DNA from: Geobacter sp. UBA5735
GTDB taxonomy: Bacteria > Desulfobacterota > Desulfuromonadia > Geobacterales > Geobacteraceae
Length of the DNA stretch: 64,000 nucleotides
Assembly: GCA_002419385.1 (NCBI GenBank)
Contig: DIFZ01000024.1
Span: 749-64,748, forward strand
Direction of reading: 5' to 3'
Shown here piece by piece: positions 6,785 to 24,119 of this stretch. Made by a program: the position numbers and the translations under genes. The notes below the pieces were generated by a model. That model was not told the origin of the DNA and made no database searches. It was given only the letters and a program-made list of their open reading frames with translations. Position 1 is the stretch's first letter; each line of letters begins with the position of its first letter.

Positions 6785-6789
6785 AAGAT

Positions 6790-8220: not shown

Positions 8221-8237
8221 GCGTCAACGTTCACTCT

Positions 8238-10814: not shown

Positions 10815-11004
10815 GGATTCGTTCTGCTTCCGCCATCCTCCCCAGAGCCAGGCTCTCCGGGACCAGGACGAGATCGCACGCCGGGCAGGCGGGCAGGTCC
10901 ACCTCGAAATTCCCTTTTTCGTATGAAAAGAATACCTTGGTGAGTTGAAGCTTTCCTCCGCAGGATGCACAGGTCCAGGCTTCGGCCTCTTGAGAGAAAT
11001 TCAT
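10801..11004 (-). CDS. small zinc-ribbon protein (CxxC...CxxC)
   Basis: 67 aa: MNFSQEAEAWTCASCGGKLQ...DLPACPACDLVLV. There is an ATGA overlap with the upstream oxidoreductase stop. From memory it matches a small 'redox protein' family named after DVU_1557. Confidence 0.6.
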   Translation of the reverse strand: MNFSQEAEAWTCASCGGKLQLTKVFFSYEKGNFEVDLPACPACDLVLVPESLALGRMAEAERILEDK

Positions 11005-13331
11005 TTCTTGATCCCCACGATTTTCATTCTGTGACAGTATGCATTCAGTACCGTGAAGCCATCGCCCTCAAGCTGATACTCCACCCAGAACGTCACGTTC
11101 GCCGGTTGCAGATATGCCAGGAAATTGCCGCTTTCACTGCACTGCATCCTCATGCCGCTCGATTCGGCATGCAAAATCACTTTCCTGATATCTTCCTCGA
11201 GGATCCTGCGCTCGTCGACGCGTTTGCGCACCTCGGGCGACATGACCAGCGCCAGCTTTTCGTAGTGCTCCAACTGAGGCTCCTTCCCCTCGCCAAGTTC
11301 AGCAAGGACAGATTCCTTGACGCGTACGCGGCCATCGCGGCGCTCCGACCAGGATATCCAGCCGCGGGCGGCGGGATCGGCGCCCGCGACAACGGGGAAA
11401 AGATGCTCGATGATATGGGATATGCGTTTCCCGACAAAGGCGAAGTTGTCCCTGCACATTGCGCAATACGCCAGGTAGTCGTTATCGCTCGCCGTTGTCC
11501 TCCTGGCAACCACGTCCCGTGCCAGGGTCGGGTTCGCGTTGTACATGAGCCCCCCGTAGCCGCAGCATTCCGGCTTCTCTCCGCTCAGTGGAAGCTCCTC
11601 GATGCCCATGCCGAGGGATTCGAGAATCCTGCGGATGCCCTGCTGCTCCTCCTGTTTCTGGCGGGACGCACAGGGATCGACAACCGATACGGTGACTTCC
11701 CCGGCCCCGGACACCCGTACCGAAACGGGCAACCCTGCATCAAGGATGGTACTCCAGAGAGAAACCGGTTCCGTTTCCGGCAGGTGTTCCTGGAACATAT
11801 TCAGGCAGGTAGTGCAGGCAGTGATGATCCGGGGTTTGCCCATCTTCTCCCAGCAACCCCGTATTTCGTTCAGCGCCTGACTGAACAGGTCTTCCCGTCC
11901 TGCCCAGAAAGCGGGGGCACCGCAGCAGTGGAGCAGGATGCCCACACCGCCGGTCAGCTTCTCCCTCAGGTAATGGTAGGAGGACAGGACCTCGCCAGGC
12001 GCGGATCCGCACAGCTGACAGCTGGGGAAATAGAGCCAGGCGCTCTCGCTTTTCCCAGGTTCACGGCGGCACAGGCTGAAAAGATCGCTGTTGCTGAATG
12101 CCATGTCGTCAAGGGCGAATTCGTGGAAGGAAGCCGGCATGATTTTCTGCTTCAGCAGGGTGCGGCGCGCCTCAAGACACATGTCGGCCATGCTGAAATC
12201 GTTCGGGCAGATGGTCTCGCACAGGCCGCAGGTGCTGCAGGAATTCGTGAAAACGTTGTACTGGTGGGCAGCACCCAGGAGGATACGTTCATTATTGAAG
12301 ATCTCCCGTGCGTATTTCTTCGGATACGCCTTGTAGCGTTCCAAAAAGAGGCATTTTTTCACGCACTCCCTGCATTCGCACTGAATGCAGCGCTTCGCCT
12401 CCATGTGCGCCTCTTCTTCCGAATAACCCTTTACGGAATCAGCAGGCACGACCCTCGGCAGCGGATCGATTCCTTCAAGGCTGGTGAAAAGCCGGGAACT
12501 GCATGGGCCCTCGTTTTCCCTGCCGAATTCCAAACCGACCTTCTGCATCAGGCGTTCTATGGAGAGGGCCGGCTTTCTTCCTTCCAATGTCTCCATGACC
12601 GGCGAAAAACCGCCTCGGAAGCGGGTACCGCCACCGGCGAACACCCCATCCCTGCCTGTGGCTCCCGTTGAAGGTGTAACAGCGATGAGGCCGTCGCCAT
12701 CCAGTTCGAGAGGAAGAGCACACCCATGGAATGAATCACGATCCAGAATCACGGCTGCGTATTCTTCACAAACCTGTTCAAAAAATGCCTTGTCAAGCCG
12801 GACTCCAAGGTGGATGTCCGCCATCATACTTTCAAGGACCAAGAGTTCCTCGGCGAGAATTTCCCGTGGCAGTATCCGCTCCGGAAGATCCCAAAGCGGC
12901 CCGCCAAGCCGCTCGCCCGATTCAAAAACGGAAACTACAAACCCTTTCTTGAGAAGATCCCAGGCGGCGGTTACACCGGCCAGACCCGCCCCGAGAACAG
13001 CGATGCGGTGGTTTTTGCGAGGCAGCAGCTGGACACGCTTTTTCCCGGCAAACTTCTCAACGCAGAGCCGTTCCAATGATCCGATGGCCAGGGGACCACC
13101 CACGGGGCCCCGCTTGCACCGCTCCTCGCAAGGATGGTCGCAGATGCGCCCCAGGATGCCGGGAAAAGGCATGGTCTTGTTCAGGACCTTATAGGCAGCG
13201 TCCCAGTCACCCTTGCGGATCTCCTTCAGAAAAAGCCTGGCATCGACATGGAGCGGACAGGCCGACGTACATTCGGGAGATTCCTCCTGGATGCATTTGT
13301 TTTCCCATGCAATGAGTTCGTTCTTTTCCAT
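11001..13331 (-). CDS. multidomain flavo/FeS oxidoreductase: GltD-like N-terminus, NAD(P)/FAD Rossmann, 2x[4Fe-4S], HdrD-type CCG domains
   Basis: Track ORF to 13409; I set the start at the ATG at 13331 (GAAGG upstream). Domains read in order:
- CPLHVDARLFLKEI...ICDHPCEERC, a glutamate-synthase small-subunit-like FeS domain.
- IAVLGAGLAGVTAAWDL, a dinucleotide-binding motif.
- CIQCECRECVKKC and CSTCGLCETICP, ferredoxin-type clusters.
- Two Cys-rich CCG-like regions (LHCCGAP, PECCGYGG). Confidence 0.75.
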   Translation of the reverse strand: MEKNELIAWENKCIQEESPECTSACPLHVDARLFLKEIRKGDWDAAYKVLNKTMPFPGILGRICDHPCEERCKRGPVGGPLAIGSLERLCVEKFAGKKRVQLLPRKNHRIAVLGAGLAGVTAAWDLLKKGFVVSVFESGERLGGPLWDLPERILPREILAEELLVLESMMADIHLGVRLDKAFFEQVCEEYAAVILDRDSFHGCALPLELDGDGLIAVTPSTGATGRDGVFAGGGTRFRGGFSPVMETLEGRKPALSIERLMQKVGLEFGRENEGPCSSRLFTSLEGIDPLPRVVPADSVKGYSEEEAHMEAKRCIQCECRECVKKCLFLERYKAYPKKYAREIFNNERILLGAAHQYNVFTNSCSTCGLCETICPNDFSMADMCLEARRTLLKQKIMPASFHEFALDDMAFSNSDLFSLCRREPGKSESAWLYFPSCQLCGSAPGEVLSSYHYLREKLTGGVGILLHCCGAPAFWAGREDLFSQALNEIRGCWEKMGKPRIITACTTCLNMFQEHLPETEPVSLWSTILDAGLPVSVRVSGAGEVTVSVVDPCASRQKQEEQQGIRRILESLGMGIEELPLSGEKPECCGYGGLMYNANPTLARDVVARRTTASDNDYLAYCAMCRDNFAFVGKRISHIIEHLFPVVAGADPAARGWISWSERRDGRVRVKESVLAELGEGKEPQLEHYEKLALVMSPEVRKRVDERRILEEDIRKVILHAESSGMRMQCSESGNFLAYLQPANVTFWVEYQLEGDGFTVLNAYCHRMKIVGIKK

Positions 13332-13380
13332 CGGGACCTTCTTTCGTCGGGAATCATGGAGAATGACAACAGAAAACGAT

Positions 13381-13407: not shown

Positions 13408-13435
13408 ATCGTTATAACATAAAATACATTACGAT
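13408..13435 (-). promoter_or_regulatory. ModE-type operator (box 1)
   Basis: The minus strand reads ATCGTAATGTA-TTTTAT-GTTATAACGAT. This is an 11-6-11 palindrome of the ATCGnTATATA-N6-TATATAnCGAT type. It sits about 75 nt upstream of the oxidoreductase start. Confidence 0.7.
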
Positions 13436-13499
13436 TAAAGTGTTATGGAGCCGGCCGGGTCATGCACCGGCTCCAAGAGCTTGAAACAGCCACTTTCTG

Positions 13500-16304
13500 C
13501 TATTTTTTCGGTGGCGCGGAGTTTACATCCTGGCATACATAACCCTGGGCCAGAGCGTCGGACACGTCGAAAGCCTTCTTCGGCGACTTGAGCGCCGCGA
13601 GGATCTTCTCGGGGTATGCCGGCAGGTGACGGATGCGTGCGCCGCATGCGTTGTCGATGGCGTTGATGACGGCGCAGTGAGGAGCGGACAGCGGAAGTTC
13701 GCCGACGCCGCCGGCGCCGAAGGCGCCCAGTTCACGAGGCTTGGTCACATAGATGATTTCGAGATCGTCGGTGATGTCCTTGCAGAACGGGAAGCCCGCG
13801 CCGATCATGTTGGAGTGCGCCTTGATCATCTCGAAGTCTTCGGTAAGGGCCAGTCCGATACCCTGGGCCAAACCGCCGTAGATCTGGCCGTCAACGACCA
13901 GTTGGTTGGTGATGGTGCCGACGTCGGCCACATGGGTCATCTTGTAGCAATGAGCCTTGCCGGTGGTAATGTCGACTTCGACTTCCGCCAGGAACAGACC
14001 GTACATGTAAATACAGAACGGTTCGCCCTTGCCGGTCTCGACGTCGCACGGCGTGCACGGCGTGGTCCATTTGCCGTATACCTGGGTTTCGATTCCTTCC
14101 TTCACCATTTCGTCATAGGTGCGATAGGTGCCGTCAGCTTTCCTCATGGCCGCAAGCAGGTTCTCGCAGGAAACCCTGATGGCGTTGCCGGTGACGACGT
14201 TGTTGCGGCTGCCGCCGGACGGGCCGCTGTTCGGGGTCAGACTGGTGTCGTTCAGGCAGAGGTGGATCTGGGACGGTTTCAGCCCGAGGGGCTTGAGGGT
14301 TTCATGGGCGAATGCAAGGGTGCCCATATCGGAACCCTGGCCGTGATCCTGCCAGCTGTTGCCCATCATCACTTCGTTGTTGGGCAGGAGTTTAGCCCAG
14401 CTTTCGGATGTGTCGGGGCCGTCGAGGCCGCAACCGTAGATGCCGAGGGAAACGCCGACGCCGCACTTCACGGTGTCGGTGCTTCTCAGTTTTGCGTTTG
14501 CAACGGCTCGCTCGTATTTCGGACGGAGCGCTTCGAACTGCTCAGGGAATACGAACACTTCCGGAGTCTGCTGAGTCGGGGTGGTTGCGCCGGGGCGGTA
14601 GCAGTTGATTTCGCGGAGTTCGAACGGGTCTTTCCCCATTTTCTTGGCCAGCTCGTCGATAAGGGACTCGGAGGCGAAGAAGGCCTGCGGAGAACCGTAT
14701 GCGCGGAAAGGGGCGCCCCAGCAGTGGTTGGTGCAGACTGTCCGGCCTTCACCGCGCATGTTCGGGATGTCGTAGCCTGCGAAGGCGTACTGTAAACCAC
14801 GAACGGTGAGGAGGTCGCCGAACTCGGAGTAGGGACCGTGGTCGACGGACCAGTCGGTTTCCGTGGCGAGGAATTTGCCGTCTTTGTCAGCGGCAATCCT
14901 GGCCTTGAACCAGAACGGAGAGCGCTTGCCGGTGTAGAACTGCAGTTGAGCCCAAGAGCAGGAAAGGTGAACCGGTTTGCCGCCGACCGCCATGGTGGCA
15001 ACCGCGAGCAGGGCTTCGTTGGAAGGACAGAATTTGTAACCGAAGGAGCTGCCGCAGGGGTTCTGTACGATGACCAGGTTTTCCAGTTCGACGCCGACAC
15101 CCGGGGCGATCATTGCCTGGTGCAATTGCAGACAAATGGACTTGGAATGGACGACCACCTTGCCTTCATCATTGATGTACGCGAATCCGACGTCCGGCTC
15201 GACGGGCATCTGGGGTTGACGGCCGAGATAGTACTCGCCTTCCACAACATAGGCGGCTTTTTCCATGATCGGCTTGGTGTCCTCACCCTTGACCAGATTC
15301 TGGGTGAAGTAGACGTTCGGGGTGCCGGGGTGAATTTCAATTGCGTCCGGAGCCATGGCTGCCGGCGCGTTCATGTAGTGCGGCAGCACTTCCAGGTCGA
15401 ACTTAACCAGCTTCGCAGCGGCATCGGCATGCGCTTTTGTGTCGGCAATTACGAGAGCAATGGCGTCCCCATACTGGAAGACCTTCTGGTCGTTGAGAAT
15501 CGGGCGGTCCCATCCGTCACCCTTATTGGTGGGGAAGGTAATCAGACCGGTGATGCGGTTCTTGCCCTTGACGTCCTTGTGGGTTACAACCTTGACCACG
15601 CCCGGCGCCTTCTCTGCTGCGGAGGTGTCGATCCCCTTGATGTTTGCATGGGCCACATCGGCGTACGCGATGGCGGCATGGAGGGTGTCTTCGGGGAGCT
15701 GGTCGGCCTTATCGTTGCCGAAATCCCAGAGTCCGCAGACCTTGGCAACGGATGTGGGACGCGGATACCGTGTTCCGTAAACCCTGCCGTCCTCAGGGGC
15801 CTTGTAATCAAATACGGATGCGGACATTTCGCCGCGCAGAACCTTGGCGGCGTCCATCACTGCGTCAACGATGGAGATGTAACCGGTGCAGCGGCAGGCA
15901 TTCTTGTACTGGTGGAACCAGTCACGCACTTCTTCACGGGTCGGGTTCGGGTTGGAATCGAGGAGCGCCTTGGCGGAGACTATGAAACCAGGGGTACAGA
16001 AACCGCACTGAAGTGCGCCGTGGTGGATGAAAGCCTTCTGGAGGGGGTGGAGGTTAATCGGTGTACCGATCCCCTCGGTGGTGGTAATCGTCGACCAGTT
16101 TTCGACCCGCTTCATCTTCATGGTGCAGGTGCGAACGAGCTTGCCGTTCAGGATGACATTGCAGGCGCCGCATGTGCCGGTCGCGCATCCGACCTTGACA
16201 CTGGTCAGGTGTAACTGTTTCCGCAGAACATCGGACAGGAGAGCTTCCTGGTCAACGATCAGCGTCCTCTCGACACCATTTACTTTGAGAACCTTTTTAA
16301 TCAT
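13500..16304 (-). CDS. mop: aldehyde oxidoreductase, xanthine-oxidase family, MOP type (2x[2Fe-2S] plus molybdopterin domains in one chain)
   Basis: Start set at MIKKVLKVNG (AAAGGAGGAGG upstream). The N-terminus KVNGVERTLIVDQEALLSDVLRKQLHLTSVKVGCATGTCGACNVILNGKLVRTCTMKMKRV is near-colinear with Desulfovibrio gigas MOP as I remember it. The second 2Fe-2S motif is CGFCTPGF, followed by about 750 aa of molybdopterin-binding domains. Confidence 0.9.
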   Translation of the reverse strand: MIKKVLKVNGVERTLIVDQEALLSDVLRKQLHLTSVKVGCATGTCGACNVILNGKLVRTCTMKMKRVENWSTITTTEGIGTPINLHPLQKAFIHHGALQCGFCTPGFIVSAKALLDSNPNPTREEVRDWFHQYKNACRCTGYISIVDAVMDAAKVLRGEMSASVFDYKAPEDGRVYGTRYPRPTSVAKVCGLWDFGNDKADQLPEDTLHAAIAYADVAHANIKGIDTSAAEKAPGVVKVVTHKDVKGKNRITGLITFPTNKGDGWDRPILNDQKVFQYGDAIALVIADTKAHADAAAKLVKFDLEVLPHYMNAPAAMAPDAIEIHPGTPNVYFTQNLVKGEDTKPIMEKAAYVVEGEYYLGRQPQMPVEPDVGFAYINDEGKVVVHSKSICLQLHQAMIAPGVGVELENLVIVQNPCGSSFGYKFCPSNEALLAVATMAVGGKPVHLSCSWAQLQFYTGKRSPFWFKARIAADKDGKFLATETDWSVDHGPYSEFGDLLTVRGLQYAFAGYDIPNMRGEGRTVCTNHCWGAPFRAYGSPQAFFASESLIDELAKKMGKDPFELREINCYRPGATTPTQQTPEVFVFPEQFEALRPKYERAVANAKLRSTDTVKCGVGVSLGIYGCGLDGPDTSESWAKLLPNNEVMMGNSWQDHGQGSDMGTLAFAHETLKPLGLKPSQIHLCLNDTSLTPNSGPSGGSRNNVVTGNAIRVSCENLLAAMRKADGTYRTYDEMVKEGIETQVYGKWTTPCTPCDVETGKGEPFCIYMYGLFLAEVEVDITTGKAHCYKMTHVADVGTITNQLVVDGQIYGGLAQGIGLALTEDFEMIKAHSNMIGAGFPFCKDITDDLEIIYVTKPRELGAFGAGGVGELPLSAPHCAVINAIDNACGARIRHLPAYPEKILAALKSPKKAFDVSDALAQGYVCQDVNSAPPKK

Positions 16305-16511
16305 ACTTCCTCCTCCTTTGGGTTTTATGTAACCGGGCAATGCCCGGCTACGAGGGATGAAACAAACCCTTCATCGCTCCTGTGGAGAGGATGGCGCTGA
16401 AGGACGGCGAACCAACAAGAATGCCGATAACAGTTCATTCAGACCCACTACCCTGCCTGTGGATGAGACAGGGGTGCTAAAAAAAAGACATGCCGAAAGT
16501 TGTCCATACCT

Positions 16512-16557
16512 GAAAAAAGGCCCCTCACTCCGCCAGTGGAGGAGACAGGAGTGAGGG
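16512..16557 (-). terminator. intrinsic terminator after the MoeA-like gene
   Basis: Minus-strand RNA: CCCUCACUCC-(16 nt)-GGAGUGAGGG followed by GCCUUUUUUC. Confidence 0.65.
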
Positions 16558-16581
16558 AAGGTGGAATGACAAACTTTCTTT

Positions 16582-17607
16582 CTACCCCTTGCCGAAACTG
16601 CAGGCGGGGTAGCGGCACGCTTCACAGTCGAGACAGTAGCCGCCATGACCCAGTGCGACTATGTCTGCGCGACTTACGCGCTCACCTGCAAGTATTCTCG
16701 GTACGATCAGTTCAACTATCGTTGCCTTGTGATACATGGCGCATCCGGGAACGCCGATGATCGGCACATCGCCGATGTAGGCAAGCATGAACATGGACCC
16801 CGGAAAAGTGGGCGCCCCGTACGTGACGACGTCAGCTCCACTAGCCTTGATTGAAGCGGGGGTGCGGTCATCAGGGTCAACCGACATCCCGCCGCTTGCA
16901 ACGATCATTTCTGCACCTTCTGCCAGGAGCTGCCGGATGGACGCAACAATCACCGACGGGTCATCGGGGGTGAATATCTGCCGCATGACGGTGCTGCCTA
17001 CCTCGGCAAACTTGGCACGCAGGACCGGGCCGAACCGGTCTTCGATCCTGCCGTGGAACACTTCGTTCCCGGTCGTGACGAGGCCGACTTTCAGGGAACG
17101 GAACGGTTTTATTTTGACAACAGGCCCGTATTCCCCGCAGATCCTTTCAACGGCGAGGATCCGGTCGTTGTCGGTATAAAGGGGTATGATGCGTGTACCT
17201 GCGACCGGCATGTCAGCTGAGACCTGCTGATCGGAATGAAGGGTTGCAAGGACGATCTGCTCTATGGAATTAATTTCCTGGAGGGCGGCTGAGTTGACTT
17301 TGATGAGACCATTACGGGCAGAGACCAGCTTGACCTTTCCTTCGGACGGCTCAGAAAAAACGATGCCCTCCCCCGCAGCCGCCCGCGCTATCCGGAGTGC
17401 GGCGTCATTTTCATGCACGAAACCTTCCTTGAGATCAAGGACATATATGTTGTCTTTGCCCAGCTTCAGCAGTTTCGGGACATCTTCTTCCTTTATGACG
17501 TGCCCCTTTTTGAACGCACGCCCCTTGAATTCTCCCGGGACGATGCGGGTTATGTCATGGGAAAGAACCCTGCCGACTGCTTCCTGGACGGGGATGGATT
17601 TCATCAT
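16582..17607 (-). CDS. MoeA-like molybdopterin-binding protein (MoeA N-domain plus MoCF_biosynth domain, Cys-rich tail, no MoeA_C)
   Basis: Start set at the ATGATG at 17607 (AGGAG upstream). It has IPVQEAVGRVLSHDI (MoeA-like) and LKVGLVTTGNEV...ASGGMSVDPDDRTP (MoCF domain). The C-terminal tail is GHGGYCLDCEACRYPACSFGKG. Confidence 0.7.
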   Translation of the reverse strand: MMKSIPVQEAVGRVLSHDITRIVPGEFKGRAFKKGHVIKEEDVPKLLKLGKDNIYVLDLKEGFVHENDAALRIARAAAGEGIVFSEPSEGKVKLVSARNGLIKVNSAALQEINSIEQIVLATLHSDQQVSADMPVAGTRIIPLYTDNDRILAVERICGEYGPVVKIKPFRSLKVGLVTTGNEVFHGRIEDRFGPVLRAKFAEVGSTVMRQIFTPDDPSVIVASIRQLLAEGAEMIVASGGMSVDPDDRTPASIKASGADVVTYGAPTFPGSMFMLAYIGDVPIIGVPGCAMYHKATIVELIVPRILAGERVSRADIVALGHGGYCLDCEACRYPACSFGKG

Positions 17608-17715
17608 CCTCGGATTTCTCCTTTTGATTTTAAGCTTTTTTCCGCGGTAGCGCGGCTCCAGCCGGCTGGTTTTCCCGCACAGTCTGCACAGAGGGAGACC
17701 GGTTTCTTCTCCAGA

Positions 17716-17761
17716 ATGAAAAACCCGCATCAATACTGAATTCATTCAGTATCAATGCGGG
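17716..17761 (-). terminator. intrinsic terminator/attenuator inside the MoeA-like leader
   Basis: Minus-strand RNA: CCCGCAUUGAUACUGAAU-GA-AUUCAGUAUUGAUGCGGG then UUUUUCAUUC. The arms are 18 nt and contain two G.U pairs. Those would be C/A mismatches on the plus strand, so the hairpin is strand-specific. It sits about 110 nt upstream of the start codon and about 150 nt downstream of the predicted promoter. Confidence 0.7.
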
Positions 17762-17802
17762 TTTCGTTAGGTCCGCACGGTGCGGAGGACGAAATCGGCG
17801 CT
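17757..17802 (-). promoter_or_regulatory. conserved structured leader motif, copy A
   Basis: Minus-strand RNA: AGCGCCGAUUUCGUCCUCCGCACCGUGCGGACCUAACGAAACCCGC. It has an outer helix UUUCGU/ACGAAA and an inner hairpin UCCGCA/UGCGGA. Its 3' CCCGC is the first part of the terminator stem. A second copy lies at 22185..22229. Confidence 0.6.
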
Positions 17803-17914
17803 TTGATCTATCCGGCTAGCTTCAACAGGTGTCGAGATGTTTCATCGGATCGCTTGTCGTGAGGTTCCCTGTTTCCGGTGAAGCATGGCATATCGGGTAC
17901 AACGCTGCAGAGGT

Positions 17915-17948
17915 ATCGTTATTTATCATGTTATATAACCATATGCAA
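17915..17948 (-). promoter_or_regulatory. ModE-type operator (box 2) overlapping a sigma-70-like promoter
   Basis: The plus strand reads ATCGTTATTTA-TCATGT-TATATAACCAT (17915..17942), with 2 mismatches to the ATCGnTATATA-N6-TATATAnCGAT pattern. On the minus strand, TTGCAT (17948..17943) is followed by a 17-nt spacer and then TAAATA (17925..17920). The box therefore covers the spacer and the -10. Confidence 0.75.
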
Positions 17949-18202
17949 GAAATTTTTTCCTCATCGAAACGTGGCCGAAAAAAGATATTTTTCTTGCAAA
18001 GCGAAAAAAAAGCTGTCTCCCGGTCAAAAACCTCGCCGACGAATACATGAAGCTCGTGCACCATATCCCCGCTGCCTGTATTCCGTCATTCCGACGACAA
18101 CCCGAATCCTGTAATTTCAATTATATGCGGAAGTACCTCACCCCGATTTCCAACGGGTGAAGATTTTTTCGAACCGACACGGTGAGTAAGTAAACTTTTT
18201 TC

Positions 18203-18236
18203 TTGCATTTCGTTATTTAATTTGTTACATAACGAG
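18203..18236 (+). promoter_or_regulatory. ModE-type operator (box 3) overlapping the promoter of the modE-like gene
   Basis: TTGCAT (18203..18208) is immediately followed by TTCGTTATTTA-ATTTGT-TACATAACGAG (18209..18236). TACATA sits 17 nt after the -35. The geometry is the same as for box 2. Confidence 0.7.
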
Positions 18237-18346
18237 TGGATATTCTCCCATATCCATTCTTTCCTTGGCCCCATGTTGCCCAGCATGGGGCCTCCCTTTA
18301 ACACCTTTCAGAAACTTCGGCAGTATACGGAAAAAGGATTCCTCAC

Positions 18347-18703
18347 ATGGACAACAAAAGAATAGACATGTCCGGCAAAATCTACCTCCACCTGAAAGAC
18401 TGCAAACCCCTTGATATGGAAAGCATAGCGCTTCTAGAAAAGGTCGACATCCACGGGTCGATAGCCCGCACTGCGAGAGAGATCGGCATCAGCTATCCGA
18501 AGGTATGGCATACTATCGACACGTTGAACAGACTGTCATCCAAGCCCCTGGTGGTAAAACTGGCCGGTGGCAAAGGCGGCGGCGGCGGCACATTCCTCAC
18601 TGAAGAGGGCAGAAAGTTCATCAAACGTTTCAAGTCAATACAGCGGACCCACGAAAGGTTCATCCGGCAGCTCGAAGACAAATGGCACGGGAGCCGCAGG
18701 TAA
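18347..18703 (+). CDS. modE: ModE N-terminal-domain-only winged-helix regulator (no molybdate-binding Mop domains)
   Basis: 118 aa. The block LLEKVDIHGSIARTAREIGISYPKVWHTIDTLNRLSSKPLVVKLAGGKGGGGGTFLTEEGRKFI is the ModE/LysR-type HTH with the characteristic Gly-rich loop. The ORF ends where the di-Mop domain of full-length ModE would begin. Confidence 0.8.
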   Translation: MDNKRIDMSGKIYLHLKDCKPLDMESIALLEKVDIHGSIARTAREIGISYPKVWHTIDTLNRLSSKPLVVKLAGGKGGGGGTFLTEEGRKFIKRFKSIQRTHERFIRQLEDKWHGSRR

Positions 18704-18834
18704 GGGCCTCGCGGGAGGAAAACTCCGGCTGCCCTTCACCCTAGCTCCTCTGCCTGCTCCATGCAGCGGGAGTACACAGCCCGTCCACCAATCGGCAATA
18801 CCCGCGGACAGGCCGTTAATCACTGGTCCCCAGC

Positions 18835-19242
18835 TCAATCCAGGTCATCATGGGAGTGATCGCACCCGCCGCTGCCATCCCCGCAACGGCCTGCCTCTGC
18901 ACTGCATTGCTTTTTCACTTCCGGCAGCTCCTGCCTGCCGAACAGTTCCGCATTTTCCCTGACGCTTTCCGATTGCGCCTCGTAGACCATGAATCCCATC
19001 ATGTTCAACAGTTCCAGGAGGTTGTCGCCTATTCCGCCGACGACCACTCCGTCCAGTTCGCTGCCGGCCAGGGCTTTGAACGGATTGCACCCAGCCTCAG
19101 GGGCGGACCTGTCTTGGTTGGGGACGGCCGATGTTGCTTCGGTTTCGGTATCAACCAACAAAAAGTGGGGCGCTGAAGCGAAGTGGCCGTAAATACGGCT
19201 TTCCATCCCCTCATCCTCGATTACGGGAAAACATACTTTCAT
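18835..19242 (-). CDS. NifB/NifX-type (dinitrogenase FeMo-cofactor-binding domain) protein, orange-protein-like, with Cys/His-rich tail
   Basis: Start set at MKVCFPV. The blocks HFASAPHFLLVD...DGVVVGGIGDNLLELLNMMGFMVYEA fit the Nitro_FeMo-Co fold. The tail is CSAEAGRCGDGSGGCDHSHDD. Confidence 0.7.
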   Translation of the reverse strand: MKVCFPVIEDEGMESRIYGHFASAPHFLLVDTETEATSAVPNQDRSAPEAGCNPFKALAGSELDGVVVGGIGDNLLELLNMMGFMVYEAQSESVRENAELFGRQELPEVKKQCSAEAGRCGDGSGGCDHSHDDLD

Positions 19243-19330
19243 ATCCAAAAACCTCCAATGAGATAACGGGCAGTCCATGCCCGGACAAAAACTGAATGCC
19301 TGCCGTCAAGCCGGCTGACACCGCCAGTAC

Positions 19331-20680
19331 CTACGGAGCTTTCATTTCTTCCATGACCAATGCCTTGCCCACCAGGTCCATCACGCCGCCGCACACCGTA
19401 GCCCCCATGCCGTAATGCTTCAGGACAAGGGGGAGTTGTGCTTTGCAGCTGGCACAGGGCGCAGCGACATAATCCAGCGGCTGAAGCGCTTGTATCTGCC
19501 GAGCTTTCATTTTTCCGAACTGCATGCGCAAATCGTGCATTTCGTCCATGAGCAGACCGGAACCGCCCCCGCAGCAGAAATTGCGCTCCCGGTTGGGGGA
19601 CATTTCGACGAATTCTTCTACGCAGGCCTTGACGATCTGCCTCGGCGAATCCAAAAGTCCTGTCCCTCTGCCATAGTTGCAGGAGTCGTGGAGCGTTGCC
19701 CTCAGGGGCAGCCGGGTGAGATTCAGCTCCGGGAGCCGTTTCGCCACGTAATCCAGGACATGTTCCAGATGAAAAGGAACGGGGCCGTTCGCACCTTCGG
19801 CATACATCCGGGCTGCACGCCAGCCATGGCCGCACTCTCCCAGAATCACATGCCTGGCACCGACCGCCGCCGCAGCCGTCCGCATACGTCGGTCATGCTT
19901 TTTAAGAATCTCCACATCGAAGTGAAGGCCGTAGTTCGCAGCCTCAAGCATGACCGAAGAGAGAGTCCAGTCGACTCCCAGTATGTGGAAGACCTTGGCT
20001 GCCCCCAGCAGTGTCTCCACATTGGTAAAGAGTTCTGATGATGACGGCAGGAACAGGACTTCGGTGTGCGGTTTGTCAACCGGAATCCTGATGTCGATGC
20101 CGGTTTCATCGCGCAATTCGTCTTCCAGAAAGGAGCAGCTGTCGATGATGGCCGGCTTGAGAATTCCGCTGTTGTTTCCCGTCTGGAGTTCATTGCGGCC
20201 GATAGTGACCAGAAAGCTCGGTGCAATCCCCATCCGGAGCAGGATGTTGCGCCCGGCAAGGACGATTTCTCCCGTGTCGATACCGCAGGGGCAATAAACG
20301 GCACAGCGGCGGCACACGGTGCACTGGTAAAAGTAGCTCGCCCACGTGTCGAGAGTATCGGCATCGAACTCCCGTGCGCCGGCAAAACCGCGGAACAGTC
20401 TGCCGGACCAGGTGAAATACCTCGCGAATATGCTGCGCAGCAGACCGGCCCGTGCTGCGGGCAGGTTATTGAAATCGTCCGTCCCCAGGTAACTGTGGCA
20501 GGCTTTGGCACACGCCCCGCACCTGGTGCAGGTTTCCAGCATGACCGAAAACGACCTGGCAAATTTCCTGAACTCATCCAGCAGGTCGAGAGTCCGTTCC
20601 TTCATGGAAGACTCGTCGACCTGTTCGATGCCGAGATGGTGCAAATCCTCCTTTTTCGCCGGATGATAGGGCAGGTTCAC
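19331..20680 (-). CDS. dsrK: DsrK/HmeD-like FeS protein with CCG domains
   Basis: 449 aa. It has CTRCGACAKACH...LLRSIF and CTVCRRCAVYCPCGID (2x[4Fe-4S]), plus C-terminal CCG motifs (HDSCNYGRG, NFCCGGGSG). There is a GTGA overlap with the DsrM-like stop. Confidence 0.75.
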   Translation of the reverse strand: MNLPYHPAKKEDLHHLGIEQVDESSMKERTLDLLDEFRKFARSFSVMLETCTRCGACAKACHSYLGTDDFNNLPAARAGLLRSIFARYFTWSGRLFRGFAGAREFDADTLDTWASYFYQCTVCRRCAVYCPCGIDTGEIVLAGRNILLRMGIAPSFLVTIGRNELQTGNNSGILKPAIIDSCSFLEDELRDETGIDIRIPVDKPHTEVLFLPSSSELFTNVETLLGAAKVFHILGVDWTLSSVMLEAANYGLHFDVEILKKHDRRMRTAAAAVGARHVILGECGHGWRAARMYAEGANGPVPFHLEHVLDYVAKRLPELNLTRLPLRATLHDSCNYGRGTGLLDSPRQIVKACVEEFVEMSPNRERNFCCGGGSGLLMDEMHDLRMQFGKMKARQIQALQPLDYVAAPCASCKAQLPLVLKHYGMGATVCGGVMDLVGKALVMEEMKAP

Positions 20681-21498
20681 GTCTGCCCTCCCCTATCCAC
20701 CGGTCCCTGTGCAGCTGCGTGAAGGGCAGCATGAACCCTGCGTGCCGCAAAGCGCGACCGGGGAGCGGCGCCTTCCGCGGTCGGACTGGCCGGGGGAGCT
20801 TCCATGAGCATCGCCCGGTTGACGATGGAACCGGCAGCGTGGAGCAGGCGTGAAAAGGGGAAATACAGCAACAGGATGTTCGCCAGCAGAAAATGGCTGA
20901 CGAACATCGGGCTGTCGGGCAGCGCCGCGGAACGGAACATGATGAGATCGCTCATGTAAGCCCTGACGGCGGGGAGATCCGCTTGAAAACCGGGCAGGTA
21001 CATCATGATTCCCGAGACGGCAAGCGCCATGAGCAGCAGCAGGTTGAAAAAATCTTCCGCCACGGAAAGCTTCCTGACCTCCGGATTGACGATTCTGCCG
21101 ATGAGAAGCGCGTAAAGCGAGAGCACCATCACGCCACCCGACAGCCCTCCCAGCAATTTTGACATGAATCGGCTCGTTCCAGGGCTCACGCCGACAAGGG
21201 TAAACTGGTCACGAAGACAGTATATCCCGACCACATGGCCTGCGATAACCAGCCCCAGAGACAGGTGGAACAGCCAGACCCGAAGCCAGAGTGCCTTGTC
21301 TTCGCGGAAAATGCGGCCGCAGAAAAAAAACTCCCCTGCGAGAGCCGCGACCTTTCCCATCGTGTTCCGTGGTGCGGGAAAAAGCGTGATGTGGAACGGG
21401 ACAGGCTTTTTCAACCATCCCGCGATCTTCATAACCGTTCCGGAGATGAAGACAGCACAAGCCGTATAGGGAAGAAGTGCTCCCAGCAGAAACTCCAT
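20677..21498 (-). CDS. dsrM: DsrM/NarI-like membrane cytochrome b
   Basis: 273 aa, about 5 TM helices. The start resembles nitrate reductase gamma subunit family proteins (LLPYTACAVFISGTVMKIAGWLKKPVPF). Conserved His residues lie in the helices. Confidence 0.7.
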   Translation of the reverse strand: MEFLLGALLPYTACAVFISGTVMKIAGWLKKPVPFHITLFPAPRNTMGKVAALAGEFFFCGRIFREDKALWLRVWLFHLSLGLVIAGHVVGIYCLRDQFTLVGVSPGTSRFMSKLLGGLSGGVMVLSLYALLIGRIVNPEVRKLSVAEDFFNLLLLMALAVSGIMMYLPGFQADLPAVRAYMSDLIMFRSAALPDSPMFVSHFLLANILLLYFPFSRLLHAAGSIVNRAMLMEAPPASPTAEGAAPRSRFAARRVHAALHAAAQGPVDRGGQT

Positions 21499-21520
21499 GC
21501 ATCATCCTTGCTGCATCGTG

Positions 21521-21838
21521 TTACAGGCAACCTGCCGGCTTGGGAAGGCCTGCCACTTTGCAGGCTCCTTTCGCGGGACCGGGTGGGAACAGATCCTCGA
21601 TCTCCTTCAAGGCCAGCCCGGTATCCTTGCAGAGCTTCCGGATCATCGGAGCAATGCGGAACCGCTCATAATAATCACGCAGGTAGTAGATCACCCGCCA
21701 GTGATTGTCCGTAAACTCTGCAATGTTCACCAGTGCCCCGTATGCCCTGGCCACATCCTCGCTCCATTCTTCCGGATGCACGAGAAAACCATCTTCGTTG
21801 AGTTCAACAAGTTTTCCGTTAACCTTGAGATACGCCAT
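21521..21838 (-). CDS. dsrC: DsrC-type sulfur carrier (TusE/DsrC/DsvC family) with both C-terminal cysteines
   Basis: 105 aa. It ends ...GPAKGACKVAGLPKPAGCL, which has the penultimate Cys plus a second Cys 10 residues upstream. This is nearly identical to the Desulfovibrio DsrC tail as I remember it. Confidence 0.85.
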   Translation of the reverse strand: MAYLKVNGKLVELNEDGFLVHPEEWSEDVARAYGALVNIAEFTDNHWRVIYYLRDYYERFRIAPMIRKLCKDTGLALKEIEDLFPPGPAKGACKVAGLPKPAGCL

Positions 21839-21947
21839 GACATTACAGCCCTGAATTCACGTTGTCCCAGTGAACTAGTTTATGGTAAAAGTCTTGCGCG
21901 GTGTTCCCGTCGCGGGGCAGGAGGCTGCCAACCGGTTGCGTCCAGGT

Positions 21948-22118
21948 TCAGCTGCCGTATATATTGCTCAGGGTATAGGTAAGACACTTGGTGCATTGCC
22001 ATTTGTATTGGCCCAAATGATCATGGCAGAACCATGCACCACATTTCGAACATTTCTTGTTCAGGTAGTACTCGGTATCTATCTCTTTGTTGCATGTGGC
22101 ACATTTTTCAATCGACAT
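21948..22118 (-). CDS. small Cys-rich zinc-ribbon protein (hypothetical)
   Basis: This is the internal ATG of the track ORF 21948..22256. Sequence: MSIEKCATCNKEIDTEYYLNKKCSKCGAWFCHDHLGQYKWQCTKCL. AAGGG lies 7 nt upstream. It sits right after the leader motif and terminator (copy B). Confidence 0.4.
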   Translation of the reverse strand: MSIEKCATCNKEIDTEYYLNKKCSKCGAWFCHDHLGQYKWQCTKCLTYTLSNIYGS

Positions 22119-22140
22119 GGGTATCCCTTTCAGATTCCGG

Positions 22141-22188
22141 AAAAATAAACGCACCCCTGAAATGCCGGTATAAGCGGCTCTGGTGCGG
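22141..22188 (-). terminator. terminator-like hairpin plus U-run after leader motif copy B
   Basis: Minus-strand RNA: CGCACC-(26 nt with an inner GCCG/CGGC stem)-GGUGCG followed by UUUAUUUUUCC. It is weaker than copy A. Confidence 0.45.
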
Positions 22189-22229
22189 GTTTCGTTGGGT
22201 CTGCTGAAGCAGAGGACGAAATGTGCGCT
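22185..22229 (-). promoter_or_regulatory. conserved structured leader motif, copy B
   Basis: Minus-strand RNA: AGCGCACAUUUCGUCCUCUGCUUCAGCAGACCCAACGAAACCCGC. The outer helix and flanks are the same as in copy A. The inner hairpin is UCUGC/GCAGA, with a compensatory C:G to U:A change relative to copy A. Confidence 0.6.
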
Positions 22230-22302
22230 CTGGCTGTTGTGTGGAATGGCCGACAAAAGGATCGGAGTGCACGGAGATTGCCTTGCAGCGATGGAACATA
22301 AC

Positions 22303-22476
22303 CTACTTGAATGTTTCGGTTTTCTCTATATAGCTGACCCCTCCGTCCTTGAAGGAAATGACCACTTTCCCGGAAAAATTGTCCGGAATTATGTTCAACT
22401 CCGAAAGAGTGTCGGAAACTTTCCTCTTCCAGACCGAATTCGGCACCCTTATGTCTGTGACGACTTGCCTTCGCAT
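22303..22476 (-). CDS. YezD/DUF2292-like small protein
   Basis: This is the internal ATG of the track ORF 22303..22545. The C-terminus GKVVISFKDGGVSYIEKTETFK matches the remembered DUF2292 pattern (G-x-V-x-I-x-x-x-D-G-x-V-x-x-I-E-K-T-E). Confidence 0.5.
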   Translation of the reverse strand: MRRQVVTDIRVPNSVWKRKVSDTLSELNIIPDNFSGKVVISFKDGGVSYIEKTETFK

Positions 22477-22719
22477 GAAATTTTTCGATGCCCCCCCGAA
22501 AGCCCATGGCCATGGAAATTCCGTACCAGCACCGGCATTTTCCATGCGAAGCCTCCGCTTCCCGTTTCCTCTTGGAATGTACTCAGTGAATGAATTGCTG
22601 CGTGGTGTTCAGGCATTGCGGCTTAGTGGCAAACAGAGCCAGGCCTGAGGTTTTCAATCGACAACGCAGTTCAACCAGTCAGAAAAAAAAGCTGTTTCCG
22701 GATGGAAATCACCTATCGT

Positions 22720-22761
22720 TTGCACCATTCGTTATATATATTATTAAACAACGGAGTGCAA
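22720..22761. promoter_or_regulatory. ModE-type operator (box 4) bracketed by inverted -35-like hexamers
   Basis: TTGCAC (22720..22725), then ca, then TTCGTTATATA-TATTAT-TAAACAACGGA (22728..22755), then GTGCAA (22756..22761). The left half-site is near perfect and the right half has 4 mismatches. It lies in the divergent region between the yezD-like gene and the MOT1-type transporter gene. Confidence 0.6.
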
Positions 22762-22958
22762 GAGAATTTTTCTGCCCGGCACCCATGGTCATCCCGCAAA
22801 TCCCGTAAACATTCTTGACGATGCGCGACCGAACGGGTAACCTTGCACATCGGCGTGATGGTCACTTACCGCGGACGGCCATGCTCCCGCGAACCTCCAG
22901 AAAAGATTCAAACGAGCAAATCGCCCCGGCCGACATTACAACCTGGATATTGAAATAC

Positions 22959-24119
22959 ATGAGAATCGGTTCATTCGAATTCAACCTTCGCGAGCTTTCC
23001 GGATCTCTCGGCGACATGGGCACCTTCGTGCCGCTGGCAGTCGGGTACATCGCGGTCTGTGGCATGGAGCCCGCAGGGATCCTGCTGATGATGGGCCTGG
23101 CGAATATTGCCACCGGCCTGTACTACCGGCTGCCAATTCCCATCGAACCGATGAAAGTCATCGCCGCCGCGGCAATTGCGCAGCAGTGGCCGCCGTCGAT
23201 GATCCTGGCATCAGGATTCTCCATGGGCATCATCTGGATGCTCATTGCCGCTACAGGGGCGGCCTCCCGTGTAGCGAACCTGACTCCTTCTGCGGTTGTT
23301 CGCGGCATCCAGGTAGCGTTGGGAATTCTTCTGGCAATTGAGGCCGGAAAACTGCTTTCCACCTCCTGGCTTCTGGGCGGACTGGGCCTTGCGATCGGCA
23401 TCGGCTTTCGGAAATGCCGCCATGCGCCGGCGGCCGTTGTGCTGGTTCTGCTGGGAGTCGCGATCATGATGATCAACGGCACGTTCAGCCAGGTCATGAG
23501 CCCGGAGATTACCCTTCCTCACCTTGCCACCTTCAGCCTCGGGGAAGTCTGGCAATCCCTGGTCCAGGCGGGATTTGCCCAGATACCGCTCACCGTGACC
23601 AATGCCACCATCGCCACATCGTGTCTCATTTCCTCCTACTGGCCCGAACGACAGGTCAGTCCGCAGCGGCTTTCCGTCAGCCAGGGGATTATGAACCTGT
23701 TTTCTCCTTTTTTCGGCGGCATGCCCATGTGCCACGGTGCGGGCGGCTTGGCCGGCCAGTACTATTTCGGAGCACGGACCGGCGGCACGAACATAATCGA
23801 AGGAATTATCGAAATCATTCTCGGACTCTTCTTCGCCGCTTCGGTGGCTGGGCTGTTTGCTTCTTTTCCCCAGGCCGTGACCGGAACCATGCTGATGCTC
23901 GTGGGATTTGAGCTCATAAAGTTTGCCCGTGACGTGCGTGGCTCGCGGGACACACTTGCCATGGCAATGACCGTTGCGGTATCCCTGGCGTCAAATATGG
24001 CATTCGGCTTCCTTGCAGGCTTGCTGGTAAACCGAATGCTGCCGTATATGAACACTGAAAAACAGCATCCGAAGAAACCCCGTCAATCTCCCCAAAGATC
24101 ATCCGGGAACGGAGAGTGA
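22959..24119 (+). CDS. MOT1-family (sulfate/molybdate transporter-like) membrane protein
   Basis: Start set at MRIGSFEFNLRELSGSLGDMGTFVPL (the track start at 22815 adds a non-membrane R-rich leader). It is polytopic. The GD(M/L)GT and ...MPMCHGAGGLAGQYYFGARTGG blocks are typical of the putative molybdate transporter family as I remember it. Confidence 0.7.
   Translation: MRIGSFEFNLRELSGSLGDMGTFVPLAVGYIAVCGMEPAGILLMMGLANIATGLYYRLPIPIEPMKVIAAAAIAQQWPPSMILASGFSMGIIWMLIAATGAASRVANLTPSAVVRGIQVALGILLAIEAGKLLSTSWLLGGLGLAIGIGFRKCRHAPAAVVLVLLGVAIMMINGTFSQVMSPEITLPHLATFSLGEVWQSLVQAGFAQIPLTVTNATIATSCLISSYWPERQVSPQRLSVSQGIMNLFSPFFGGMPMCHGAGGLAGQYYFGARTGGTNIIEGIIEIILGLFFAASVAGLFASFPQAVTGTMLMLVGFELIKFARDVRGSRDTLAMAMTVAVSLASNMAFGFLAGLLVNRMLPYMNTEKQHPKKPRQSPQRSSGNGE

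Follow-up and report, generated by a model that had tools for sequence, protein, structure and literature searches.

Conserved ModE-type sites at promoters within a Geobacteraceae molybdenum gene island encoding a ModE protein that lacks a molybdate-binding domain

How a ModE regulator without a molybdate-binding domain might serve a molybdenum gene island is the question raised by four 28-nt palindromes in this Geobacteraceae DNA. The window (the whole 64-kb stretch analysed) was compared with 23 related Geobacteraceae loci, 14 from genomes and 9 from metagenomes, giving a set of 373.6 kb in total. All four sites were found with the sequences and at the positions that an earlier note had given (Table 1). 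The TTGCAT or TTGCAC hexamers it had placed within 0 to 2 nt of three of them were also confirmed, at 0 nt from sites 2 and 3 and, at site 4, as plus-strand TTGCAC at 2 nt and GTGCAA at 0 nt; none adjoins site 1. The consensus CGTTATATA-N6-TATATAACG, with up to three mismatches, gave three matches in the window versus 0.00 expected (100 shuffles). A palindromic weight matrix derived from all four sites gave them 35–41 bits, and the next best window position 6.8 bits. As this matrix was trained on the sites themselves, the independent test was the E. coli modA operator, taken from NC_000913. Its 12-base core (CGTTAT-N12-ATAACG, at most one mismatch) matched the four sites and no other position in 64 kb, with 0.01 matches expected and a largest shuffle count of 1. 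The earlier note had proposed checks against chance frequency and for conservation in relatives; four matches are well above chance, and the motif recurred at the same syntenic positions in the 23 loci. Over the 373.6 kb, 68 of 68 core matches fell at these positions, within flanking intergenic DNA that could not be aligned. Where loci were aligned, information content was highest on CGTTAT, ATAACG and TTGCA and the flanks were random. Half-sites and spacing are identical to those of the E. coli modA operator. Judged by sequence, the four conserved sites are ModE-type and lie on promoters of a molybdenum gene island, around a modE-like gene and ahead of molybdenum-related units, much as the earlier note had proposed.

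Table 1. Positions of the sites, promoter elements, RNA elements and genes in the window
Feature	Position	Strand	Remarks
Accessory operon	2440..13334	-	Downstream of site 1
Site 1, ModE-type operator	13408..13435	-	74 nt upstream of the real accessory-operon start (13334)
Molybdopterin aldehyde oxidoreductase (AOR; MCD-type, xanthine-oxidase family)	13500..16340	-	NF045668, 1568 bits
MoeA-like/MoCF_biosynth gene	16582..17690	-	True start uncertain
Intrinsic terminator	17721..17764	-	moeA-like/AOR leader; 20-bp stem, then T run
Moco-II RNA (RF01713)	17757..17802	-	moeA-like/AOR leader; 53.6 bits (gathering score 35)
Site 2, ModE-type operator	17915..17942	-	Covers spacer and -10 TAAATA (preceded by TGA) of moeA-like/AOR promoter
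-35-like TTGCAT	17943..17948	-	A/T tract before it; TTGCA in 14/15 sequences
-35-like TTGCAT	18203..18208	+	TTGCA in 15/15 sequences
Site 3, ModE-type operator	18209..18236	+	Covers spacer and extended -10 (TGT TACATA)
63-nt hairpin-plus-terminator element	18237..18299	+	Begins at predicted transcription start of site 3 promoter
modE-N	18347..18703	+	118 aa; ModE N-terminal winged-helix domain only
Remaining site 4 operon	18835..22118	-	
Nitro_FeMo-Co/NifX-like gene	18835..19278	-	Site 4 operon
DsrK-like gene	19331..20680	-	Site 4 operon
DsrM-like gene	20677..21498	-	Site 4 operon
DsrC gene	21521..21838	-	Site 4 operon
Zn-ribbon ORF	21948..22118	-	Site 4 operon
Second Moco-II RNA	22185..22229	-	Between 57-aa and Zn-ribbon ORFs; then hairpin and TTTATTTTT
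57-aa ORF	22303..22476	-	First gene of site 4 operon; conserved
TTGCAC	22720..22725	+	Earlier taken as MOT1 -35; not conserved
Site 4, ModE-type operator	22728..22755	-	Covers spacer and -10 TATATA of 57-aa-ORF operon promoter
-35-like TTGCAC (plus strand GTGCAA)	22756..22761	-	Conserved in 9/13 sequences; TTGAAC shifted 2 nt in three others
Candidate MOT1 promoter, TTGACG-17 bp-TAACCT	22815..22843	+	-35 22815–22820, -10 22838–22843; no overlap with site 4
MFS_MOT1-type putative molybdate transporter	22959..24119	+	Real start is ATG at 22959

Sites 2 and 3 and, on the minus strand, site 4 share a layout conserved across 15 loci, in which an A/T tract and TTGCA(Y) are followed, after 17 bp, by a -10 that falls within the promoter-proximal half-site. 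At site 1 an extended -10 (TGnTATAAC) is conserved and a -35 hexamer is missing. A simple promoter scanner called none of these promoters in the window, because TTGCAT agrees with TTGACA at only three of six positions; the -35 assignment is accordingly taken solely from conservation and spacing. The operators would be built into the core of sigma-70-type promoters, with the promoter-proximal half-site supplying the -10 (often TGn-TAnAnA) and, at three sites, the TTGCA(Y) -35 and upstream A/T tract abutting the distal edge. Occupancy of an operator so placed would exclude RNA polymerase, which argues for repression; the repression geometry proposed in the earlier note is thus borne out as a conserved arrangement over spacer and -10. 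Could the palindromes be AT-rich promoter cores, symmetric by chance, rather than protein operators? The promoter-proximal half-site does coincide with the -10, and the central TG is accounted for by the extended -10, not by a regulator. However, the distal half-site CGTTAT, which lies in the spacer, and the outer CG at either end are conserved to the same degree as the -10, and the sequence of a promoter spacer is not normally conserved. The rarity of modA operator matches (0.01 expected per window) and the location of all motif matches beside a ModE-domain gene and molybdenum genes leave this reading close to refuted.

Site 1, present in every locus covering the region (12 genome loci, L016 and L019), would repress the operon of AOR accessory genes, XdhC, MocA and modBC. 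Encoded here are a diclust_near_Sec oxidoreductase, a methyltransferase, a DVU1555-type GCAxxG protein, a TrsS radical SAM protein, a DVU1553-type AMP ligase, XdhC_rel_AOR, a DVU1551-type MocA-HD protein, a CobC-like phosphatase, ModB, and a ModC of 229 aa without a TOBE domain. Strand and spacing only suggest that these genes form one transcript. The hairpin ending the AOR gene is immediately upstream of site 1. The modBC, XdhC and MocA genes were absent from the earlier note.

The moeA-like/AOR operon would be the second repressed unit. Site 2 was kept in 14 loci and had decayed to 17 bits in L014, where the AOR island is lost. The leader contains a Moco-II RNA, conserved in all loci, whose conserved 3' tail ACGAAACCCGC overlaps the 5' arm of an intrinsic terminator. 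The ATG at 17745, at which the listed MoeA-like ORF begins, lies inside this terminator hairpin and is for that reason not the real start; homology begins at about residue 26–46 of that ORF. Including the copy in the site 4 operon, two Moco-II matches were found at 53 bits, each with a terminator overlapping its own 3' tail. Both RNAs had been overlooked in the earlier note. Like the motif as described (RF01713; Weinberg et al. 2010, PMC2864571), they lie 5' of cofactor-related genes, and both are full-length matches above the gathering score; unlike it, they stand downstream of a ModE-box promoter and are fused to a terminator sharing the 3' tail. In a limited literature search on the motif, no description of a ModE-box promoter combined with Moco-II and a fused terminator was found.

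All 24 sequences have site 3, among them L014 (29 bits) and the stand-alone copy in L024. The earlier note had it preceding the modE-like gene; it is indeed upstream of modE-N, but a 63-nt element, which that note overlooked, comes first. This element is invariant at 53 of 63 columns in aligned loci and consists of a 5' hairpin (TGGATAT-TCTCCC-ATATCCA), a U/C-rich linker, a GC hairpin (GGCCCCATG...CATGGGGCC) and TCCCTTT. An Rfam search gave no match, and the element occurs once as a stand-alone unit, in L024. It could serve as an attenuating leader or be a small RNA. Repression at site 3 would act on this element and, by read-through, on modE-N, amounting to autoregulation, with the terminator-containing leader setting the amount of ModE-N made.

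The fourth repressed unit would comprise the 57-aa ORF, the Zn-ribbon ORF, dsrC-dsrM-dsrK in some genomes, and the nifX-like gene. The dsrC-M-K genes are absent in L009 and L011–L013, and fragments remain in L010. Substitutions in the 57-aa ORF number 24, 25 and 262 at codon positions 1, 2 and 3, a pattern clearly pointing to a real gene. Its earlier "yezD-like" label found no backing, as neither Pfam nor NCBIfam returned a family match. Site 4 had decayed to 15 bits in L014, which is without this operon. The earlier note's picture of two face-to-face promoters sharing site 4 did not hold up, since only the minus-strand TTGCAC is conserved and MOT1 has its own promoter. After GTGCAA, the plus strand continues with conserved GAGAATTTTT; read on the minus strand, this forms an A/T tract upstream of the -35-like hexamer. 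The plus-strand TTGCAC was rejected as a MOT1 -35; it is specific to the window, with TTTACA in three loci and neither in the rest. The candidate MOT1 promoter lies ~60 nt downstream of site 4, and its TTGAC is kept in the window, L001–L003, L010–L012 and L014. MOT1 would therefore escape repression by occlusion. Of the target units named earlier, the accessory operon, the moeA-like unit, modE and the 57-aa-ORF operon remain as predicted targets and MOT1 drops out.

Site 4, ~100 nt upstream of the predicted MOT1 transcription start, invites another reading, in which ModE-N binds the boxes as an activator or dual regulator and site 4 is an activating position for the conserved TTGAC promoter. 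E. coli ModE acts as activator or dual regulator at moaA, dmsA and napF. Co-induction of a molybdenum enzyme and the genes for its maturation would make physiological sense, and E. coli ModE is annotated as a dual regulator (PMC12327845). We consider this improbable, as sites 1–3 and minus-strand site 4 cover the -10 and spacer at the optimal 17-bp spacing, which is not an activating position and is also unlike the 19–20 bp of the MerR type. Nor is the separation of site 4 from MOT1 constant, ranging between loci from about 165 to 580 nt, which speaks against a fixed activating geometry.

Repression by a ModE-family protein leaves the identity of the binder to be considered. ModE-N matches TIGR00637 (ModE_repress, E 8.7e-24) and aligns with 1B9M across residues 14–106 (E 5e-13); its best Foldseek matches are 1B9M, 1O7L and 2IJL (TMq 0.67), and its recognition helix ISYPKVW resembles ISYKSAW of E. 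coli. It has no Mop/TOBE molybdate-binding domain, and TOBE is also absent from the two closest 50%-identity clusters; the next relatives, at 45–48% identity, carry TOBE. A tblastn search of the window and the 14 genome loci found no Mop-like ORF. The local molybdenum regulon proposed earlier fits the target genes (MCD-type aldehyde oxidoreductase, MoeA-like protein, XdhC, MocA, modBC and the regulator itself), but with a regulator of this kind the term is drawn from gene content, not from a sensor. Of 24 sequences, 23 have both modE-N and the sites. L014 has kept ModE-N although most local targets are gone, so the protein must serve further targets or a different role.

The E. coli ModE N-domain is homologous to ModE-N (30% identity, TMq 0.67), and the full protein has 262 aa with two molybdate-binding Mop domains, whereas ModE-N ends after the N-domain. 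The same operator core and spacing, CGTTATAT-N8-ACATAACG, stands directly upstream of modA in NC_000913, and in both species a unit with molybdate transport genes has the operator overlapping its promoter. Unlike at modA, the same repressing geometry here extends to a molybdoenzyme operon and the promoter of the regulator itself, with TTGCAY as the -35 elements. Single-domain ModE proteins of Desulfovibrio and Desulfotalea, with a Mo-sensing mechanism termed "not clear", were described by Rodionov et al. (2004; PMC545781). As here, those deltaproteobacterial genes encode the DNA-binding domain only; the single-domain protein here is instead surrounded by four canonical E. coli-type boxes. The repeat associated with the former was reportedly later attributed to TunR by Kazakov et al. 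in 2013. The ModE of Methanosarcina acetivorans shares the motif architecture (RTTATGT-N8-RCATAAY), has a sensor module cut to one Mop domain and binds DNA in vitro without responding to molybdate (PMC12327845); it differs in being archaeal, retaining that domain and regulating alternative nitrogenases. A putative ModE of Agrobacterium tumefaciens (PDB 2IJL; E 9.4e-10, TMq 0.66) is also short and N-domain-only, with a solved structure; it is just 23% identical to ModE-N and, to our knowledge, has no described operator or function.

Within the family, the G. sulfurreducens modDABC site has the same consensus as those here (ATCGnTATATA-N6-TATATAnCGAT; PMC545781), with a full-length, Mop-bearing regulator and a single reported site, at the ABC transporter. 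Full-length modE genes occur in G. sulfurreducens and G. bemidjiensis, and the former carries a site of E. coli type at modDABC (PMC545781, PMC2996986), so the binder here could be a protein of that kind. The boxes would then be operators of a canonical di-Mop ModE encoded elsewhere, conferring a molybdate response that ModE-N, as competitor or heterodimer partner, tunes or blunts. This would explain a sensor-less protein in a Mo-responsive circuit, the four-site motif is indistinguishable from the canonical one, and the nearest ModE-N relatives outside its own clade, 45–48% identical in the DNA-binding domain, bear TOBE. We nevertheless think it unlikely, if less so than activation. The window has no full-length ModE or Mop ORF, nor do the 10 kb around modE-N on either side in 14 genomes, and strict co-inheritance of modE-N with the sites, with the autoregulatory site in 24 of 24 sequences, points to ModE-N as a direct binder.

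We favour, as reasonably probable, a reading in which a ModE-family winged-helix dimer, most likely ModE-N, would bind the four sites and repress the four units. More weakly, we infer that DNA binding by ModE-N would itself be independent of molybdate and that molybdenum or cofactor status would instead enter through RNA, at the Moco-II attenuators of units 2 and 4 and at the terminator-containing leader of modE-N. The island offers a concrete system for asking how sensor-less ModE regulators work. Joint repression of a molybdoenzyme, its maturation genes and modBC would differ from E. coli logic, where ModE represses uptake and activates cofactor and enzyme genes.

The four 28-nt sites that the earlier note had named as ModE operators were recovered with the same positions and sequences, as were the TTGCAT/TTGCAC hexamers lying 0 to 2 nt from sites 2–4. 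All four sites contain the inverted repeat CGnTAT...ATAnCG over 24 nt that defines a Mo-box (consensus ATCGnTATATA-N6-TATATAnCGAT), and their targets are typical of molybdenum-gene promoters: modBC, XdhC, MocA, the MoeA-like gene and the Mo aldehyde oxidoreductase (AOR). A palindromic matrix trained on the sites scored them at 35–41 bits, versus 6.8 bits for the next position in the window. This matrix gave no score to the E. coli modA operator (CGTTATAT-TGTCGCCT-ACATAACG, as read from the E. coli K-12 sequence), owing to the GC-rich centre of this operator. Its outer core, CGTTAT-N12-ATAACG, was therefore chosen for a test independent of the window's own sites, using the K-12 modE–modA region. 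With at most one mismatch, the core matched the four sites only in the 64-kb window (shuffle expectation 0.01), each site lying within 0–1 mismatch of it. No further site was seen in the rest of the window (24–64 kb), which holds housekeeping genes.

Fourteen related genome loci in which the gene order is preserved were collected through alignment of homologues of ModE-N, the 118-aa ModE-like protein encoded beside site 3. Identity to ModE-N ranged from 93% down to 71%, and the source contigs were all labelled Geobacteraceae, Geobacter or delta proteobacterium. Inspection of these orthologous regions, which the earlier note had proposed, showed the sites recurring at the four syntenic places. 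The modA core gave 68 matches over 373.6 kb in all, 68/68 at syntenic positions, and a chance origin of the palindromes is much less likely than a regulatory one. Site-anchored ungapped stacks were rich in information at CGTTAT, ATAACG and the adjacent TTGCA and close to zero in the flanks. The same pattern was found in nine additional metagenomic copies. From one genome, L014, the entire AOR island and the operon of a 57-aa ORF have been lost; here decay has brought sites 2 and 4 down to 17 and 15 bits, and site 3, before modE-N, is retained at 29 bits. ModE-N probably has targets beyond this island, since L014 keeps modE-N after the island's loss.

A shared layout was apparent at sites 2 and 4 (both minus strand) and at site 3 (plus strand): an A/T tract, a TTGCA(Y) directly adjoining the operator, 17 bp, and TAnAnA within the promoter-proximal half-site. 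At sites 2 and 3 TAnAnA is preceded by TGn (extended -10), and site 1 has a conserved TGnTATAAC without a -35. The operator appears to cover the spacer and -10 at all four sites, a repressing position, and conservation and spacing support the repression geometry that had been read from the window. None of the four promoters was called by a simple promoter scan, because TTGCAT shares 3/6 positions with TTGACA; their assignment therefore draws on conservation, with spacing and the extended -10 in agreement. A sigma-54 promoter with TTGCA as its -12 (TGGCAC-N5-TTGCW, GG 11–12 nt upstream of GC) was ruled out: an A/T tract, and no GG, lies upstream of each TTGCA. Activation instead of repression is much less likely. 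A MerR-type spacer operator, activating by DNA distortion, was excluded by the 17-bp spacer at sites 2, 3 and 4 (minus strand), versus 19–20 bp. Two face-to-face promoters, suggested previously for site 4 from its inverted flanking hexamers, were not upheld, as the plus-strand TTGCAC is peculiar to the window and the gene of the MOT1-family transporter has its own candidate promoter. Depending on the locus, MOT1 lies about 165 to 580 nt from site 4.

Coordinates of operators, promoter elements, RNAs and genes in the window
Feature	Position	Strand	Remark
Site 1	13408-13435	-	Mo-box
Site 2	17915-17942	-	Mo-box
Site 3	18209-18236	+	Mo-box
Site 4	22728-22755	-	Mo-box
TTGCAT hexamer	17943-17948	-	0 nt from site 2
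TTGCAT hexamer	18203-18208	+	0 nt from site 3
TTGCAC hexamer	22720-22725	+	2 nt from site 4
GTGCAA hexamer	22756-22761		plus-strand reading; 0 nt from site 4
MOT1 candidate promoter	22815-22820 (TTGACG), 22838-22843 (TAACCT)	+	17 bp spacing; TTGAC conserved in most loci
Site 1 leader	13381-13407	-	conserved GGAGAG...CTCTCC hairpin, then ATCGTTTTCTGTT; hairpin begins at predicted transcript start
Moco-II RNA, first copy	17757-17802	-	between site 2 and moeA-like gene
Intrinsic terminator of first copy	17721-17764	-
Moco-II RNA, second copy	22185-22229	-	between 57-aa ORF and Zn-ribbon ORF; intergenic, not operon 5' end
63-nt element	18237-18299	+
modE-N	18347-18703	+
Site 1 operon	2440-13334	-
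AOR gene	13500-16340	-	MCD-type
dsrC, dsrM-like, dsrK-like	19331-21838	-
57-aa ORF	22303-22476	-
CusCBA-type operon	53636-59694	-

ModE and its operator are textbook knowledge. The operators found here and their placement are of the known ModE kind, whereas the protein differs from ModE in having no Mop domains. ModE-N matched TIGR00637 (ModE repressor domain) at E 8.7e-24 with 83.5 bits, under the curated cut-off of 98.5, and aligned with residues 10–103 of E. coli ModE (1B9M, E 5e-13) as well as with the short A. tumefaciens protein 2IJL. Its AlphaFold model (pLDDT 76) returned 1B9M first in Foldseek (TMq 0.67), with 1O7L and 2IJL also in the top five. By TIGR00637, 1B9M and Foldseek alike, the N-terminal domain is that of the ModE family. 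The protein ends at residue 118 and gave no TOBE/Mop match, so the di-Mop part of the family is missing, and no TOBE was found in its two closest 50%-identity clusters (P0031, P0032). More distant relatives (clusters P0033–P0042, the nearest at 45–48% identity) carry TOBE. ModE-N is thus a ModE-N-only protein and is not classed as a canonical ModE, because the defining Mop domains are absent. Such domain-only genes are common: about one third of the best 150 cluster representatives are ≤160 aa. The clade of ModE-N itself comprises just two 50%-identity clusters among 1.8 billion representatives, its signature being ISYPKVWH in the recognition helix, where ISYKxAWD is canonical, plus an added glycine in the GGKGGGGG loop.

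The main rival to regulation by ModE-N itself is that a full-length ModE encoded elsewhere uses these same canonical boxes, with ModE-N as its competitor or heterodimer partner. With whole E. coli ModE as query, tblastn detected nothing Mop-like in the window or, in the 14 genomes, within 10 kb of modE-N; the sole weak match (6793–6930, E 0.66) overlaps opposite-strand genes and was dismissed. Membership of the TunR family was also ruled out, ModE-N being a ModE/LysR-type HTH protein with neither an integrase nor a Mop domain, and the operator sequence differs. TunR, as reportedly described by Kazakov in 2013, fuses a XerC/XerD-like DNA-binding domain to Mop domains, responds to tungstate in sulfate reducers and binds the operator CGGTCACG-N14-CGTGACCG. 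For our comparison the operator was set against Table 6 of PMC545781. Rodionov et al. (PMC545781) described ModE genes consisting of a single domain in Desulfovibrio and Desulfotalea, found no sites of the E. coli type in these and regarded the mechanism of sensing as unclear; both the sites and the molybdenum sensing of domain-only ModE proteins have been unclear since at least 2004. PMC12327845 reports that E. coli ModE without its C-terminal Mop domain binds DNA independently of Mo, and that M. acetivorans ModE, which has one Mop domain, was unresponsive to molybdate in vitro.

Rfam searches revealed two full-length Moco-II RNAs (RF01713; 53.6 and 53.4 bits against a gathering threshold of 35) that the earlier note had missed; they lie in two of the operons headed by a Mo-box promoter. 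Both are kept in every locus possessing the region, and in the inner stem a C-G pair of one copy is replaced by U-A in the other, a compensatory change. Behind each copy lies an intrinsic terminator that takes the conserved 3' tail of the motif, ACGAAACCCGC, into its 5' arm, and this sharing suggests a riboswitch-like attenuator with the terminator as expression platform. A listed ORF start at 17745 is wrong, because it falls inside the loop of the Moco-II terminator. The region around the second copy folded no better than shuffles (z -0.49). The same was true of the site 1 leader (z -0.58), the sequence of which is conserved across loci.

A further RNA element of 63 nt begins at the predicted transcription start directly 3' of site 3. 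Across 15 loci, 53 of its 63 columns are invariant, and the other 50–260 nt of the leader cannot be aligned. The predicted fold opens with a 5' hairpin whose loop reads UCUCCC; a U/C-rich linker, a GC hairpin and a U-rich tail follow. Neither this element nor the site 1 leader matched an Rfam family at gathering score or at E up to 5, and the element varies too little between loci to inform on covariation. A metagenome scan yielded nine more copies, with a Mo-box immediately upstream in 9/9 and modE-N following in eight; in total the element is present in 24 sequences, always with a Mo-box upstream. In the metagenomic locus L024 the copy stands alone (element 1642–1710; 1614–1710 with the unit), having a T7 tail, the next ORF on the other strand and no modE-N. 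The site 3 promoter is predicted to yield a short terminated RNA first. In the window, modE-N is most likely expressed by read-through, because the ~50 nt between it and the element leave no space for a separate promoter. The element is a candidate for a small RNA or an attenuating leader. UCUCCC and CCUCCC, the two C-rich segments that it leaves single-stranded, resemble anti-Shine-Dalgarno sequences and could base-pair with Shine-Dalgarno sequences.

Best supported is repression of the four promoters, that of modE-N included, by a ModE-N dimer that would occlude them. With modest confidence, we propose that ModE-N may bind constitutively, the molybdenum input being supplied by the Moco-II attenuators and the leader. 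A full scheme of split protein/RNA molybdenum homeostasis can be offered as a speculative model, and one rather unlikely to hold in its entirety: a ModE consisting of the DNA-binding domain alone would occupy canonical Mo-boxes irrespective of molybdate, and the two Moco-II attenuators in the target operons, along with the invariant 63-nt RNA from a Mo-box promoter, would sense the status of metal or cofactor. That RNA would serve as the leader that attenuates modE-N and, in one genome context or more, as a free-standing small RNA. Our literature search (ModE, TunR, aldehyde oxidoreductase, Geobacter) found no description of a sensor-less ModE with four canonical boxes, of Mo-boxes layered with Moco-II attenuators, or of an invariant RNA from a Mo-box promoter. 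Combining one ModE that lacks a sensor, four promoters each with a canonical operator, two terminator-fused Moco-II RNAs and an invariant leader or small RNA, the island is a compact test bed conserved in more than 20 genomes. Constitutive binding, need for a partner and RNA sensors can be tested against one another in it for proteins of this type.

Genomic context ties a bacterial MOT1-type transporter and a DVU1551–1559-type aldehyde-oxidoreductase maturation cassette to molybdenum control. The accessory operon below site 1 (minus strand) starts with a diclust_near_Sec FAD/FeS oxidoreductase (real start 13334), continuing with a methyltransferase, a DVU1555-type GCAxxG protein, radical-SAM TrsS, a DVU1553-type AMP ligase, an AOR-specific XdhC maturation factor and a DVU1551-type MocA-like cytidylyltransferase with an HD domain; a CobC-like phosphatase, modB and a short modC without a TOBE domain close it. 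This operon corresponds to the D. vulgaris cassette extended by the CobC-like phosphatase and modB/modC. No modA was found in the window. A MoeA-like gene and the AOR gene (NF045668, 1568 bits) are likewise on the minus strand, upstream of site 1.

The site 4 operon (minus strand), convergent with modE-N, comprises the 57-aa ORF, a Zn-ribbon ORF, DsrC, DsrM-like, DsrK-like and Nitro_FeMo-Co (NifX-like) genes, and the MOT1 gene lies past site 4 on the plus strand. The dsr genes, which share their operon with the 57-aa ORF and the nifX-like gene, are missing in four relatives (L009, L011–L013) and present as fragments only in L010; they are a variable insert in a molybdenum-linked operon, given this absence and fragmentation. 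Over 9197–10947 of L014, modE-N, site 3, the 63-nt element and MOT1 are kept, and site 2, Moco-II and site 4 persist as decayed remnants. A 5' UTR of ~250 nt separates the site 4 promoter from the start codon of the 57-aa ORF, which encodes the region's most conserved protein (87–98% identity; 24/25/262 substitutions at codon positions 1/2/3). This ORF had been called yezD-like, and its C-terminal GKVVISFKDGGVSYIEKTE resembles YezD; the name was not borne out, as no Pfam or NCBIfam match (YezD/DUF2292) appeared even at E up to 10. Elsewhere in the window, a CusCBA-type heavy-metal RND efflux operon, unrelated to the Mo-boxes, encodes an outer membrane factor, an HlyD/CusB protein with a heavy-metal-binding domain and an AcrB family protein.
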